Source of the DNA: Scenedesmus sp. PABB004 | Taxonomy: Eukaryota | Assembly (NCBI GenBank): GCA_014905635.1 | Contig: JABVCE010000018.1 | Span: 496,001-560,000 of the forward strand | Length of the DNA: 64,000 nt | Direction of reading: 5' to 3' | In this document: positions 7,101-13,100 of the stretch, piece by piece | Layout of the letters: every line of letters begins with the position of its first letter | Numbering within the stretch: the first letter of the stretch is position 1 | Notes under the pieces: generated by a model | Told to the model about the DNA's origin: nothing | Database searches by the model: none | What the model saw: the letters and a program-made list of their open reading frames with translations, nothing else | Program-made: the position numbers and the translations under genes

Positions 7101-10100
7101 GTGGCGGTGCGGGGCGGCGTGTGTGGGTGTGTCGGTGGCGTGTTTGCGTTTGAGCGTGTGCATGTGGGCATGGGGGGCGTGAGAGAGTGCGTGCGGTTGA
7201 GGGTGCGTGGCGAGAGCACGGCGCGGGCGTGGCTGAGCGCGCCCCGCCGCGCGCGCCGCGCCGCCTGCACCCAGCCACGCCCCCCTCACACCTGGTAGGT
7301 GTTGCGCGGGCTCTGGTTATGGTGGGGAAAGGGTATGAGCCCCGCGACGACGCCCATGATGGTGAAGGGCTCAATCTCCAGGTGGCTCACGCCGGGGGCG
7401 AGGCCCGCCTCGGTCATGGCGATGAGGGACGTGCTCTCCTCGTTGACGTCGAGGTACTCGATCAGGCCTGGTGAGGGGGGCGGGGAGGGGTGTGGACGAA
7501 CAGGGTTTAGAGTTTGAATTTTAAGCCTATGTTTTGAGTTTTGAGGTTTCAAGACGTTGAGGATGAGGGATGAGGGCGCGCACGGGTGAAGAGGGGGTGG
7601 GCGGGCGGGACGCCCCACCCACCCACACACACGCACACGCACACGCAGCGCGCGCAGCAGCGGCAGCCGCGAGCCACCCCCCCCCTTCCAAAACAACGCA
7701 CCGCGCGCGAGGAAGTCCTGGAAGCCCCACTCCCCCGCGCGCAGGCGCGCGATGTGCGCCGACGTCACGCGCGGCACGCCGGCGTCGCAGATGATGAGCG
7801 GGCGGCACACGCGCCCGCCGTCGCAGCTGATGTGGCACGCGTCGCCCGACAGGTGCAGGTGCACAAACGCGCCGAGGTAGCCGCCGCGCCGCAGGTCGCT
7901 GCGCGGCGGCGGCGCGCGGGGCGAGGGGCGCGGCGCGCGGGGCGCGGCGCGCGTGCGTGAGTGTGGCGGCGTGTGTGAGCGCGGCGGCGCCGGCGGCGCC
8001 GGCGGGGCAGGGCCTGGGCTCGCGCCACAGCGCACGCGCGGCGGCGCGGGGCGCTCACCGCATCGCGGCCACAAACTGGTGCGGGCGGCGGTGCAGGCCG
8101 AGGATGGCGCCGTTGAGCAGCACGAGCGCCGCGCCGGCGCTGTGCAGCTCCGCGCCGCTCAGGCCCGCCACGGGCGTGACGCCCAGCGTGTGCGCGAGGC
8201 GCGCGACGGGCCCCTCCTCCTCGTCTGGCGGCGCGGCGCGCGGCGAGCGGCGCGCGCGCAGCGCGCGGCGCGGCGCGGGCGGGGTTAAGGCGCGCGCGTG
8301 AGGCGGCGGGCCGGGCGCGGCGGGGAGAGAGCGCCGCGCCCTGCTGCCGCGCCCTGCTGCTGCCGCGCCGCCCCCGCGACCCCCGCCCGCCCCTGCCGCC
8401 CGGCCCGAGGGCGGGGCGTGGGCACGTGTGTGCGCTGGCGGCCGGGCACCGCAGAACGCAGCGACAAGCGACACACGTGCCCCCACCCACTCCTCTCTTG
8501 ATAACACACACACGCGCAGCCTAAACCCTGAACCCTCAACCTGGAACCCTACGCCGTGCTAAACCCTGAACCCTAAACCCTGCGCCCCGCCGCGCCCCGC
8601 CCCGTGCCCGCACCCGTGGTGACGTGGGTCATGAGCGCCAGGTTCTTCACCAGCCCGCAGCTCTCGCCCTCGGGCGTGTCCGCGGGGCACACCATGCCCC
8701 ACTGGCTCGGGTGCAGCGCGCGCGGGCCCGACACCTGCCGCGGCGCGGCGCGCGGCGCGGCGCGGCGCGGCGGGGTCGGCGGGGTCGGCGGCGCGCCGGC
8801 GAGCCTCGAGGGCGCCCTCGGCGCCCCTGGCATCATCATCCTGCGCGCTCGCGCGCCGCAAAGCCCCAAGCGCGCCTAACGCCCTGCAGCGCGTGAGCCC
8901 TGACACAGCCCTAAACCCTCCCCCCACCTTGCGCGTCTTCTCAAACTGGCTCGACATGCGCGTCATCATGCCCAGCGCGGCAACAAACGACAGCCGGCTC
9001 AGCACCTGGGGGGACGGGGGGCACGGGGTCGAGCGCGTCGGTGGGCGTGTGCGTGAGTGCGCGTGCGTTTCGTGTGTGCGCGGGCGGGGCGGGGAGCAGG
9101 GGCGCGCCGCGAGCGAGCACGGCGTCGCGTGTCGGAGCCCGCGCGCTGCGCAGTGCAGCGCCGTCGCCGCGCCGTCGCCGCGCCGCGCCGCGTCGTCGCC
9201 GTCGCCGCGCCTGCGTGACGCCCTTGCGGTCCATGCGGAAGCGCTTGATGTTCCAGTTGCCGCTGCTGATGGCGCTCTCAAGGCCGTACGTGATGGTGTC
9301 GGCGCTGCGCACGGCCGGGGGGGGGGGGGGTGAGCGTGAGCGCGTGCGTGCGTGAGTGTGAGTGTGAGTGTGTGTTGGGGAGGAGACGAATGAGCGCACG
9401 CCCAGGCGCGCCCAGCGGAGCCCCATTACGCGGACCGCCGCCGCGCCGGTGCCGTGGTCCACGAGGGGCACGCACGGCGGTTGAGTCCTACGTGGACCAC
9501 GGCACGAGGCGCGCCGGCGCGACGCACAGCACGCAGAGCTTGGCAGCGACGCGCGCGCCGCCCCAGCAGCGCGTGCAGCTGGCCTGCTCAAACCCCCAAA
9601 CCCGCCAGAGCCCCCTCAAGCCCGGCGCCGCCCCGCGCCGCCCCCTGGCGCGGCCCGCCGCCGCGCCGCGCCGCGCCGCGCCGCCGCGCCGGGTGCCGTG
9701 GTCCACGAGGAGCGCGCACTCGGACGGGCGCTATTCATAGAACACGGCACCAGGCGCGCCGGCGCGGCGCGGCGCGCGCGCGGCGCGGCGCGGAGCCCGG
9801 CCCGCGCGTGGCGCCCGCGAGCGAGCGGGCTGCCGTGTCGAGTCCGCAGACGCGCGTACAGACGCCGCGATGCGCTACAAGACACAGCAACCGGCGCGCT
9901 CGTGGACGCTCGTGGACGGGCGCGGCGCCGCCGCCGGCGGCGCGCGCGGACGGCGCGCCAGCCCCTAAGCCGGCCCGCGCGCGCTCCGACTCAAACCCCC
10001 AAACCCCCCTGAGCCCCCCTCGAGCCCGGCGCCGCCCCGCGCCGCCCCAAGGCGCGGCCCGCCGCCGCGCCGCGCCGCGCCGCGCCGCGCCGGCGCGCCG

Positions 10101-13100
10101 GGTGCCGTGGTCCACGAGGAGCGCGCACTGCAGCGCAGAGACGTACGTCGACACGGCACCAGGCGCGCCGGCGCGGCGCGGAGCGCGCGGCGCGGCGCGC
10201 AGCCCGGCCCGGCGCGCACGCGGCCGGCCCGCGCGTGGCGCCCGCGAGCGAGCGGGCTGCCGTGTCGAGTCCGCAGACACGCGTACAGACGCGCCGCGTC
10301 GCGGTTCACGACACAGCAACCGGCGCGCTCGTGGACGCCGCGCGCGCCGCCGACCGGCCTCGGTCAACCACGACGGGCGGCGCGGCGGCGGCGCCCCTCC
10401 CCCTCCCCCCTCCCGCTGCCCTCCTCCCCCCGCCACGCACGCACGCACAGCCACACACACAGCCACACGCACAGCCACACGCACAGACACACGCACAGAC
10501 ACACGCACAGACACACGCACACACACACAGCCACGCACACACGCACAGACACAGGCACAGCCGCGCACCGAATGCACTTGGCGATGTCAAACTGGCTCGC
10601 GCGGTTGGCCTTGGCGAGGCTGATGTCCGCCTGGCGCTTGAGCTCGGAGTTGAGGCGCTTGAAGAGGTCCTCAAACAGCAGGCTCATCAGGCCACCTGGG
10701 GCGGGGCGGTGTTGGGGGGGGGGCATGGGTGTGGGTGGTGTGGGTGTGGGTGAGTGGTGTGTGTGGGTGGGTGACGGAGCGAGTGGGTGAGAGGGGCGGT
10801 GAGCGGGGAGGGGCGAGCGGTGAGGGACGGCTCGCCCGCTCGCCGCGCCCCGCCGCGCTCCGCGCTCCCCGCAGCGCCCGCCTGAACTGCCCCCAGCTGC
10901 ACTAAACCGCCGCGGCGCGCGCGCGCGCACCCGCGAGCTCGAGGCGCTTGTTGCCGTAGTAGTCGCGGTCGTCGATGAAGGCGGGGCTCAGGCTCGCGTA
11001 GAGCAGGCGGCGGACCATGAGCGCGGCATACGTGACCTTGGCGGCAAAGTTGTAGCGCCGCACGGGGACGTGGCACAGCACGACGTGCGCGAGCACGTCA
11101 CGCGCCTCGTCGACCTGCGGGGCGGGCGGGCGGGCGCGTGTGTGTGTGTGTGCGTGTGCGTATGTGTGTGTGTGGGGGGGGGGTGAGCGAGTGAGTGAGT
11201 GAGTGAGTGGGTGAGTGAGTGTGTGTGTGTGTGTGTGTGTGTGTGTGTGTGTGTGTGTGTGTGTGTGTGTGTGTGTGTGTGTGTGTGTGTGTGTGTGTGT
11301 GTGTGTGTGTGTGTGTGTGTGTTCGTGTGTGTGTGCGTGTGTGTGTGTGTGTGTGTGTGCGTGTGTGTTTGTGTGGTGGGGGGGGGGGGGGTGAGCGAGT
11401 GAGCGAGTGGGTGAGTGAGTGAGTGTGTGTGTGTGTGTGAGAGAGAGAGGGGGGCGTGGGGAGCGGAAGAGACAGCGGGAGCAGCGGGCGGGCGCGGCGG
11501 CGCGGCGCGGCGCGGCTCGCGGCGGCGCGCGCCTTGCTCTTGCGGCGGCGCTCAAACGCGCGGTTGCCGCGCTGCGTGAGCTTGGACCCCAGGTACTCCA
11601 GCGCCTGCGCGCCCGTGAACACGCCGAGCGCCTTGCACTCCTGGGGGGGGGGAGGACGCGCGCGGGGCGCGGCGTCGGTGGGCGCGCGGGGCGGCCGCGC
11701 GCGCATGCAGCCCCTCCCTCCCTCCCTCCGTCGCCCTCCGCCCCCCTCTGACATACCCTCCCCCTTCCTCGAACGCCCCTCCACCCGCCCGCCACGCCCG
11801 CTCCCCGCCGCCCCCCTCCTGCAGAGCCCCCGCCGCGCCGCCCCTCCAGGCCCCCGCGCGCCTGCAGGCTGGGCACGAGCAGCGCGGCGAGGGGCTCGTC
11901 CGGGCCAATGAGCTCCACGACCTCCTGGTCGCTCTCAGCGCCCATGGCCTTGAGCACGGCGACGATGTTCAGGTCGTCGCTGCGGCGCGGCGCGCACAGC
12001 ACAGCACGCACAGCACAGCACGCAGCAGCACGCGGCGGGGTTGGTGGCGAGGCAGGGCGCGCGGCGGGTGCGCGGCAGGAGGCCGGGGCGCGCGGCGGGC
12101 GCCGCCGCCGCCCGGGCTCATGCGCGCCGTCTTCTTGCCGCGCGGCAGGCGGCCTGTCGCTCGGAAGAAGACGGCGCGCACGGGCCCGGGCGGCCGCGGC
12201 GCGCGCCGGCGCGGCGGGCCGCGCTGCTCCCACACCCCAACCCCGCCGCGTCGCGCACCTGAAGGCGTTGTGTTTGAGGTACACGCGCCCCCCGCGCGCG
12301 GCGACGTTGGTCTTGCTCTTGCGCTCGTGCGTCGACGACGTCACGCTCGCCACGACCTCGCCGTGCTGGTCTGTGAGGGGCGGCGCGAGGAGGGGGCGGC
12401 GGGGGCGAGGGGGAGGGGGGAGCAGGCGGGTGAGGCGCGCGGCCAGGGCGGCGGGCAGCGGCCGGCCGCAGCTGCACACAAACCAAGCACAAACAAGGAG
12501 CGCTCAAAGAGCACAAACGTAACACAAAAACCAACACAAAAGCGACGCGCCCGTGTCGATGATGATGCGGTTCTTGCTCAGCTGCTCCTGGATGAGGATG
12601 ACCTTCTCGGTGCCCTGCGTGAGCGTTTCGGGGGAGGGGCGGCGACGCGACGCAAGTGGGCGGGCGGCGCGCGCTGTGTTTGACCGAGCGCGCGGCAGCG
12701 CGCCGCCGAGTGTGCGTCAGCGCGGCGCCCGCCGCCGCCGCCGCCGCCGTCATGCCATGCCATGCCATGCCATCATCGTGCCCCCTCACCCGCACGATGA
12801 AGTAGCCCCCGGGTCGAGCGGGCACTCGCCGAGCTTGTACAGCTCCGCCTCGCTGCGCCCGTGCAGCACGCACCTGCGGCGGCGCGGGGTGCAGGCGCGC
12901 GGCGCCGGGTCGCGCACCACACCCTCGGCCGCGCGCCGCAGCGCGCCACAGCGCCCCGCAGCGTCCCGCAGCGCCCCGCAGTGCCCCGCAGCGCCCGTCC
13001 GCGCCCCCACAAACACACAACACACAAACACACGCAGGCGCCCACGGCCACCCACCTGTCGCAGCGCAGCATGAGGGGCATCCGCCCGATGCGCACCGCC

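Follow-up and report, generated by a model that had tools for sequence, protein, structure and literature searches.

Hairpins with a constant scaffold and one divergent arm arrayed in an RPC2 intron of Scenedesmus sp. PABB004: a family of candidate small-RNA precursors

Introduction

In the chlorophycean alga Chlamydomonas, hairpins located in introns are a known source of small RNAs, and the part of the published account available to us assigns an intronic origin to 9 high-confidence microRNAs (miRNAs) and reports that DCL3 also cuts hairpin-bearing mRNAs directly (Valli et al. 2016, PMC4817775). Here, we describe a stretch of 64,000 nt from Scenedesmus sp. PABB004 (contig JABVCE010000018.1, positions 496,001 to 560,000 of the forward strand; hereafter the window, whose own numbering is used throughout), in which an intron of the gene for RPC2, the second-largest subunit of RNA polymerase III, holds an array of five related foldbacks. 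The array, which lies on the minus strand, comprises two complete tandem units and an older, partial one. The new result of this analysis is that the divergence between the units falls into three tiers: a scaffold that is nearly frozen, linkers and spacers that are intermediate, and a single hairpin arm in which half of the compared positions have changed. The arrangement recalls the algal precursors mentioned above and is weighed below as a possible family of such precursors.

Organization of the array and divergence between its units

Read along the transcript, the intron runs from a TG- and G-rich leader through hairpin B2, a spacer, hairpin A3, a G-rich linker, hairpin B1, a spacer, hairpin A2, a second linker and hairpin A1 to a C- and CA-rich tail (Table 1). 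A unit of ~410 nt, composed of hairpin B, hairpin A and a G-rich linker, is present twice in tandem and is accompanied by an older, A-only remnant (A1). Tandem Repeats Finder places the repeat at 9587-10338 (period 404, 1.8 copies, score 1100), and of the 11 repeats that it lists in the window no other has a period above 60 nt. The hairpin cores measure ~60-66 nt and, with the lower stems included, A2 and A3 extend to ~135 nt and B1 to ~126 nt, the lower stems of type A being GC simple repeats. All five hairpins have in common a terminal stem, G[G/U]UGC[C/U]GUG ... CACGGCA[C/G]C, and many positions of the 3' arm; judged from this 9-bp stem and from much of the 3' arm, types A and B are old paralogues.

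A2 and A3 have identical left (35 nt) and right (30 nt) flanks, and the 23-nt segment enclosed by them, aligned ungapped, matches at only 5/23 positions. Within 17 columns of the 5' arm, 5 substitutions and a 2-nt indel separate B1 from B2, and one further substitution lies in the 3' arm. Clustering of this degree (a maximum of 13 substitutions per 23 columns) was matched by none of 20,000 permutations, in which substitutions only were considered. Outside the arms, units 1 and 2 are distinguished by indels of 18 nt and 5 nt in the GC simple repeats and by 13 substitutions in the spacer and linker. When the simple-repeat stems and the columns past the repeat end are left out, substitutions affect 1 of 137 columns in the constant, non-repetitive parts of the hairpins, 5 of 57 in the linker, 8 of 39 in the spacer and 18 of 36 in the two variable segments, the last a figure that multi-base events could inflate. 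By Fisher tests, the scaffold differs from the linker (p=0.009) and from linker and spacer together (p=5e-5), and the variable segments differ from the linker (p=1e-5). The sole scaffold substitution, C/U in the 3' arm of B, pairs with the altered 5' arm of B2. A1 departs from unit 2 in the same direction, with 4/46 differences in the scaffold and 10/29 and 13/53 in the flanks. Taken together, the counts speak well, though not conclusively, for a constrained scaffold and for a 5' arm under no constraint at best; the side conserved even between types A and B is the 3' half.

Much of this had been perceived in an earlier note on the same DNA, written from the letters alone. The intron boundaries, the five foldbacks and their order on the transcript are confirmed by sequence and folding, and so are the identical flanks of A2 and A3 around a poorly matching segment and the near-restriction of the differences between B1 and B2 to the equivalent segment. 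The note had also held that divergence is concentrated in that segment instead of being spread uniformly, and here the pattern turned out to be sharper than its author could see.

No further copy of the array was found in the window outside this intron, either with 18-mers at up to 3 mismatches or with a covariance model of the five hairpins. Applied to the whole window with its filters off, the model scores the five at 59-74 bits and their reverse strands at 13-27 bits, and its best other match reaches 16.8 bits (E 0.05). Beyond the window, a 19-mer of the A scaffold has no exact match in viral contigs and occurs at 41 loci in metagenome contigs, all 41 of which are chance matches in contigs of 55-75% GC: they run on past the 19-mer by only 0-3 nt upstream and 0-2 nt downstream, and none has a partner arm.

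Two further sequence elements recur in the array. The motif GTCCACGAG stands directly upstream of each B hairpin (10328-10336, 9909-9917 and 9899-9907, minus strand), unit 2 holding it twice as a 10-nt tandem duplication. It is perfectly complementary to CTCGTGGAC, which lies in the type-A constant 3' arm; in the predicted fold it is part of the B lower stem, and a long-range pairing with A is also possible. On the transcript, runs of 3-7 G are numerous in the linkers (9585-9650 and 9990-10060, minus strand), a GGGGGTTTGGGGGTTTGAG motif being among them in both units, and such sequence could form G-quadruplexes.

Predicted folding and strand preference

Compared with 200 shuffles each on the minus strand, the hairpin cores have z-scores from -2.05 (B1) to -5.5 (A2), and the lower stems lower the scores of A2, A3 and B1 further (Table 1). 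Four of the five cores gain 3-8 kcal/mol in stability on the sense (minus) strand; the exception is A1, for which the plus-strand fold is the better one by 4.7 kcal/mol. The minus-strand folds contain 8 G.U pairs and those of the plus strand 5. The terminal stem of B contains two U.G pairs, which correspond to C.A mismatches on the plus strand, and one of them is changed on both sides relative to type A. On balance, the predicted folds mildly favour a structure formed by the sense-strand RNA.

Among the 25 longest inverted repeats of the window, a complementarity of 86% or more is reached only by A2, A3 and one more hairpin in an RPC2 intron. A second kind of long, near-perfect hairpin is present at 12080-12220, probably in another intron of the gene, as judged by eye from the list of open reading frames. 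Its 44-nt arms (12093-12136 and 12165-12208) are 91% complementary, and it folds at -129.5 kcal/mol on the minus strand (z -8.8) and at -136.6 kcal/mol on the plus strand (z -9.5). Its sequence is unrelated to types A and B, and it scores 9.7 bits with their covariance model.

Pairing and origin of the variable arms

Each variable arm alone was shuffled 1000 times and the hairpin refolded, and the shuffles that folded as well as the original were counted: none of the 1000 for A1, 8 for A2, 35 for B1, 61 for B2 and 281 for A3. The arms of A1 and A2 are therefore specifically complementary to the fixed 3' arm, those of B1 and B2 weakly so, and that of A3 is not. The apical stems are good in A1, A2 and B2, moderate in B1 and not formed in A3; four of the five arms pair.

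In register, the A2 arm has 12/19 positions in common with a perfect complement of its 3' arm, the first five differences all being changes from G/C to A/U, and the arms of A1 and A3 agree at 12/15 positions, a common extra (bulged) T included. Under gapped alignment with free ends, A1 and A3 reach 14 matches, a value equalled by 45/500 shuffles, and the 12/19 agreement of A2 with the perfect complement is equalled by 64/500; neither is significant, and therefore a common descent of the arms is only suggested. As far as they go, these likenesses are suggestive of diverged homologues. The A1 arm differs from that of A3 at 7/20 positions, about the level of the flanks, and from that of A2 at 13/21, which makes A2 the outlier among the A arms. 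The arms of A2 and B1 start with weak A/U and G.U pairs, and the GC-rich end lies opposite.

Possible donors of the arms were sought in the masked intron on both strands by local alignment against 300 shuffles, and none was convincing; the closest candidates among the 10 tests were a direct 10-mer for A2 (2/300) and GC-repeat matches for B2 (9/300 and 11/300). When up to 4 mismatches are allowed, the rest of the window holds no site complementary or identical to any of the five variable and two constant arms, and at 5 mismatches the counts lie within shuffle expectation. In viral contigs, a 20-mer taken from each of the five variable arms has no exact match, a search that imperfect targets escape.

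Table 1. Coordinates of the host intron, the hairpins and their parts (minus strand; MFE, minimum free energy)
Feature	Position	Strand	Evidence
Host RPC2 intron, GT...AG, 1,264 nt	9305-10568	-	Sequence; exon alignment with human RPC2; Rpb2 Pfam domains
Hairpin B2 with lower stem (core 10256-10321)	10230-10345	-	Core MFE -37.5 kcal/mol, z -3.1; kept in whole-array fold
Hairpin A3 with GC-repeat lower stem (core 10101-10159)	10064-10200	-	Extended fold -122.9 kcal/mol, z -7.6; core z -2.3
G-rich linker, unit 1 (G runs on transcript)	9960-10063	-	Unit alignment, sequence
Hairpin B1 with lower stem (core 9829-9892)	9800-9925	-	Extended fold -78.0 kcal/mol, z -4.1; core z -2.05
Hairpin A2 with GC-repeat lower stem (core 9692-9750)	9655-9790	-	Extended fold -124.9 kcal/mol, z -8.7; inverted repeat, 49-nt arms, 86% complementary
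G-rich linker, unit 2; tandem repeat ends near 9587	9545-9654	-	Unit alignment, Tandem Repeats Finder
Hairpin A1, older A-only partial unit (core 9448-9506)	9433-9525	-	Core MFE -37.3 kcal/mol, z -5.2
Variable 5' apical arm of A1	9476-9497	-	Alignment, arm-shuffle folding
Variable 5' apical arm and loop of A2; includes a 12-mer of 25% GC	9720-9742	-	Alignment, arm-shuffle folding
Variable 5' apical arm and loop of A3	10129-10151	-	Alignment, arm-shuffle folding
Differing part of 5' arm, B1	9866-9880	-	Alignment columns 95-111
Differing part of 5' arm, B2	10293-10309	-	Alignment columns 95-111
Constant 3' apical arm and terminal-stem strand, type A	9692-9719	-	Same sequence at 10101-10128; at 9448-9475 with 2 changes
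Constant 3' apical arm and terminal-stem strand, type B	9829-9860	-	Also at 10256-10287 with 1 change, pairing with the changed 5' arm

The host gene and its introns

The gene carrying the array occupies ~5,000-14,300 of the minus strand as many short exons with the Pfam Rpb2 domains 1, 2, 4, 5 and 6, and its best matches among solved structures are human and yeast RPC2, far above RPB2 and RPA2. The GT of the host intron begins at 10568 and its AG finishes at 9305; the exon ending at 10569 aligns with residues 365-408 of human RPC2 and the exon starting at 9304 with residues 408-442. The two are contiguous on the human protein, and the interval between them is therefore a genuine intron. The closest matches of a 72-residue exon of the gene are chlorophycean algae, namely Tetradesmus (78% identity), Raphidocelis (77%) and Chromochloris (77%); the top-listed match is a fungus with 65% identity and an anomalous E-value, and an identical protein is absent among the matches listed. 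By this exon alone, the organism would probably be a green alga of chlorophycean type. GC content is 78% throughout the window.

The ends of the intron are mutually complementary (9320-9385 against 10400-10565), with inverted pairs of 41 nt at 71% and of 31 nt at 74%, the TG-repeat and G-rich leader of the transcript lying opposite the C-rich and CA-repeat tail. Such ends could juxtapose the splice sites, or could be the mark of a foldback insertion. Another RPC2 intron contains a 300-nt (GT)n-type microsatellite (11138-11439), and similar TG/CA repeats border the hairpin array. Within the span of the gene there is also, at 7506-7544, a 39-nt AT-rich island, one of 15 such spots in the window, in which 12-nt stretches fall to a GC content of 25% or less.

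Candidate function and alternative explanations

With a probability that we put at roughly 0.4, the foldbacks are intron-borne substrates of a Dicer-like enzyme, that is, precursors of miRNAs or of hairpin-derived small interfering RNAs (siRNAs) of the Chlamydomonas kind, in which the scaffold and the 3' apical arm are constrained. A ~410-nt unit would have been tandemly duplicated within one RPC2 intron to give the two full units and the older A-only remnant, each unit contributing two long imperfect hairpins (B, then A on the transcript) and a G-rich linker. The sense-strand hairpins of the pre-mRNA would then be cut by the Dicer-like enzyme to yield miRNAs or hairpin siRNAs and, as a possible side effect, the unspliced host transcript would be cleaved too. 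The constrained, and so probably functional, part would be the scaffold with the 3' apical arm, and the 5' apical arm, as the fast-changing side, would need only to retain some pairing. That the array hairpins act as RNA, that they are processed and that one strand is chosen are steps that we infer; the pattern is real and unusually clean, in a new hairpin family whose putative function is unproven.

Several observations weigh against this proposal. The copies compared are two to three, and the regions were delimited after the data had been seen. The lower stems, as GC simple repeats, look conserved for trivial reasons and lie outside the 137 columns counted as scaffold. The 5' arm differs more than the spacers do, although a passenger arm is expected to change at or below the neutral rate. 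The precursor of a plant or algal miRNA is a single-stranded hairpin with a largely paired duplex of ~21 nt, few mismatches and small bulges, from which both duplex strands are released precisely as discrete 20-24-nt RNAs; the apical duplex here has ~16-19 bp, hence the 22-23-nt variable segment extends into the loop, and the 5' apical arm of A3 has no specific pairing, which would make at least one copy a poor Dicer substrate. The whole array folds strongly on either strand (z -9.3 and -10.3, 20 shuffles each) and A1 does so better on the plus strand, a combination that leaves room for a palindrome acting at the level of DNA. When 8000-12000 was scanned against Rfam, no family matched within the array at E up to 10; the nearest hits fall at 10905-10964 (mir-1538, with 25.5 bits where the gathering score is 78) and in the CA repeat.

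Doubtful, and yet the main alternative, is that the array is repetitive DNA without function. Foldback DNA, perhaps of transposon origin, would have been duplicated in tandem in the manner of a minisatellite, its units being homogenized by gene conversion, with palindrome centres that gain clustered changes through template switching, breakage and repair of the centre or indels and subsequently resist conversion. Template switching does produce clustered changes in hairpins, as the portions of two reports available to us describe (PMC5453318, PMC8794818), and the setting is congenial, with a genome of 78% GC, 144 inverted-repeat pairs of at least 20 nt in the window, GC simple-repeat lower stems that vary in length between units, a TG-rich and a CA-rich intron end that are complementary as in a foldback insertion, and about equal folding of both strands relative to shuffles, with A1 better on plus. 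The A3 arm, unpaired with its 3' arm, is itself composed of small local palindromes. The arms of A1 and A2, however, still pair along their length and hence are not filler; the same arm is the changed one in every copy; the search of both intron strands yielded no donor of the arms, its best matches falling within shuffle range save the A2 10-mer and the B2 GC-repeat; and conversion alone leaves unexplained that scaffold and linker differ so much (1/137 against 5/57) within one unit. Nor does the window contain the other copies that such a repeat might have left, by the 18-mer and covariance-model searches described above. An error of assembly or base calling in this palindromic, GC-rich tandem repeat, which would have created the divergent segments, is very improbable: long GC-rich inverted and tandem repeats are indeed difficult to assemble, but complex substitutions with pairing kept and one compensatory change are unlike the typical indel or homopolymer errors, and the flanking exons are intact and contiguous. 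An unlikely, though more conceivable, role is that of a cis-acting structure of the pre-mRNA, or of another structured non-coding RNA freed from the intron, which might modulate the splicing or stability of RPC2; the conserved 3' arm and terminal stem would be a protein-binding element and the 5' arm its loose cover. The conservation of the scaffold relative to the spacers would fit, as would the 3' arm motif common to A and B, the complementarity of the intron ends to one another and that of GTCCACGAG upstream of the B hairpins to the A 3' arm, through which an alternative long-range pairing could arise, and yet no known RNA family was retrieved in the Rfam scan, the snoRNA (small nucleolar RNA) boxes are absent from the sense strand and nothing ties the structure to the splicing signals.

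Improbable, in turn, is the proposal that had motivated the earlier note, in which small RNAs derived from the intron would have the variable 5' arms as their guide strands and the array would be a natural multiplex cassette with a separate target for each hairpin. Selection would fix the scaffold and the opposite arm and turn over the guide, a duplicated hairpin would gain a new specificity when one of its arms is rewritten, and G.U pairs and mismatches against the frozen arm would bound the sequences that can be encoded. Diversifying selection on a specificity element would be expected to give what is seen, that is 18/36 changes in the 5' arms against 13/96 in presumably neutral spacers, in frozen surroundings, and a 12-mer in the A2 arm is among the richest in AT that the window contains, ranking in the lowest 0.07% of 12-nt stretches by GC. 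A weakly paired 5' end usually favours the loading of that arm, and the weak A/U and G.U pairs that open the A2 and B1 arms would act in this sense. Against these points, the fixed opposite arm bars a free choice of guide: the arms of A1 and A2 are recognizably degraded, constrained complements of the 3' arm, and A3 lacks the duplex that Dicer needs. In an engineered backbone, such as the cre-miR1157 intron construct, both arms are exchanged, according to the part of the account available to us (PMC4817775). Targets, which the note had suggested seeking in host and viral sequences, were not found, either as complementary sites at up to 4 mismatches in the 64 kb or as exact 20-mers in viral contigs.

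What stands of the note's interpretation is the description of sense-strand intronic hairpins with a fixed scaffold, one fixed arm and one divergent arm; the step from variable to guide is unsupported. A clean swap of arms, as it was put, agrees poorly with the residual likenesses between A1 and A3 and between A2 and the perfect complement, even if neither is significant alone, and the observation that four of five arms start with U depends on the chosen edges of the segment, the first UC of B1 and B2 being constant and paired. The appeal to G.U wobbles as a sign of RNA structure is weak on the counts reported here, although four of the five hairpins do favour the minus strand, and folding of both strands, which had been recommended as a check, is strong either way and speaks only mildly for a sense-strand RNA. 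Finally, since the conserved side is the 3' arm, common to A and B, the array follows the pattern of an ordinary miRNA or hairpin family, in which the mature arm is the conserved one, and not, as had been thought, a reversal of normal miRNA-family evolution.

If the hairpins are processed, as in the precursor reading that we favour, they would add to the intronic small-RNA precursors of green algae a new and compact family from outside Chlamydomonas, lodged in the gene for a core subunit of RNA polymerase III, and their unusual divergence (scaffold 1/137, spacers 13/96, one arm 18/36) would offer a natural case for studying the constraint on algal precursors and the origin of new small RNAs after duplication. 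Should the variable arm be the loaded strand, the array would represent a route to new specificities unlike the usual co-variation of both arms. If they are not processed, the locus would be no more than a case of concerted evolution acting patchily on palindromic tandem repeats in an extremely GC-rich genome.

Other repeats of the window

Elsewhere in the window, a tandem repeat with a GC-rich unit of 36 nt (5.2 copies, 98% matches) lies at 38607-38795, and the longest short-range inverted repeat, with 65-nt arms that are 71% complementary and 19 nt apart, lies at 27789-27937.

Comparison with described systems

A literature search of limited scope, mostly of titles and the beginnings of abstracts, found no description of a hairpin array with a fixed scaffold and one variable arm, and partial likenesses can be drawn with several systems. 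The array has in common with those of clustered regularly interspaced short palindromic repeats (CRISPR) the alternation of constant elements with short variable segments of similar length, and nothing more. The CRISPR-like array imagined in the earlier note is rejected: five units only lie in a eukaryotic intron, the variable segment stands within a hairpin opposite a fixed arm and not between direct repeats, and there is no sign of foreign-DNA acquisition, 0/5 arms having an exact 20-mer viral match. Miniature inverted-repeat transposable elements (MITEs) and foldback transposons are recognized by many dispersed copies with terminal inverted repeats and target-site duplications, and within the 64 kb the scaffold occurs in this intron alone. 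Template-switch clusters in quasi-palindromes are similar in that multi-base changes gather in one arm of an inverted repeat, as far as the available portions of the reports go (PMC5453318, PMC8794818). A template switch leaves a reverse-complement donor nearby and usually improves pairing, whereas here the changes mostly reduce pairing and no donor emerged when the arms were compared with the masked intron (both strands, 300 shuffles), so that template-switch mutation was set aside as an identification.

Intronic snoRNA gene clusters have reportedly been found in Chlamydomonas (Chen et al. 2008 are said to have described them). Box C/D snoRNAs are defined by a C box, RUGAUGA, and a D box, CUGA, beside a terminal stem, and box H/ACA snoRNAs by two hairpins with an H box, ANANNA, between them and ACA after. 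The sense strand of 9430-10350 contains no C box, no UGAUG and no CUGA, and likewise no ANANNA and only 2 ACA in 921 nt, both inside the B terminal stems; neither class was retained. The intronic snoRNA clusters of green algae and plants, of which Ostreococcus provides an example in the part of the account available to us (PMC7671301), resemble the array in their tandem intronic copies, with a constant scaffold and different antisense elements. Unlike them, the array lacks the defining boxes on its sense strand and has no match to an Rfam snoRNA.

Artificial-miRNA (amiRNA) backbones, such as the cre-miR1157 intron carrying an amiRNA, also keep a fixed precursor backbone in which ~21 nt are exchanged, as far as that portion of the account shows (PMC4817775). 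The engineered backbones swap the guide and the opposite strand, keeping the duplex, whereas in the array the opposite arm is constant and pairing ranges from good (A1, A2) to absent (A3). The tandem, or polycistronic, miRNA clusters of animals and plants likewise arise by local duplication of hairpins on one transcript with one arm kept, to judge from the part of one such description available to us (e.g. PMC4238352). In known miRNA families both arms co-vary and the flanks decay; the array keeps its flanks and lower stems and, unlike those clusters, changes only the arm opposite the conserved one, faster than the spacers.

The intronic precursors of Chlamydomonas reinhardtii are distinguished from the hairpins described here, which are known from DNA sequence alone and have no similarity to any Rfam miRNA family, and an intron with five related hairpins that combine a frozen scaffold with a single hypervariable arm is not described in the available portion of the Chlamydomonas account (PMC4817775). 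In that same portion, the DCL3-dependent precursors are, like the hairpins of the RPC2 intron, sense-strand stem-loops with long imperfect stems in the introns of protein-coding genes of a chlorophycean alga, and their processing enzyme may also cut the host transcript, as is proposed for the array (PMC4817775).

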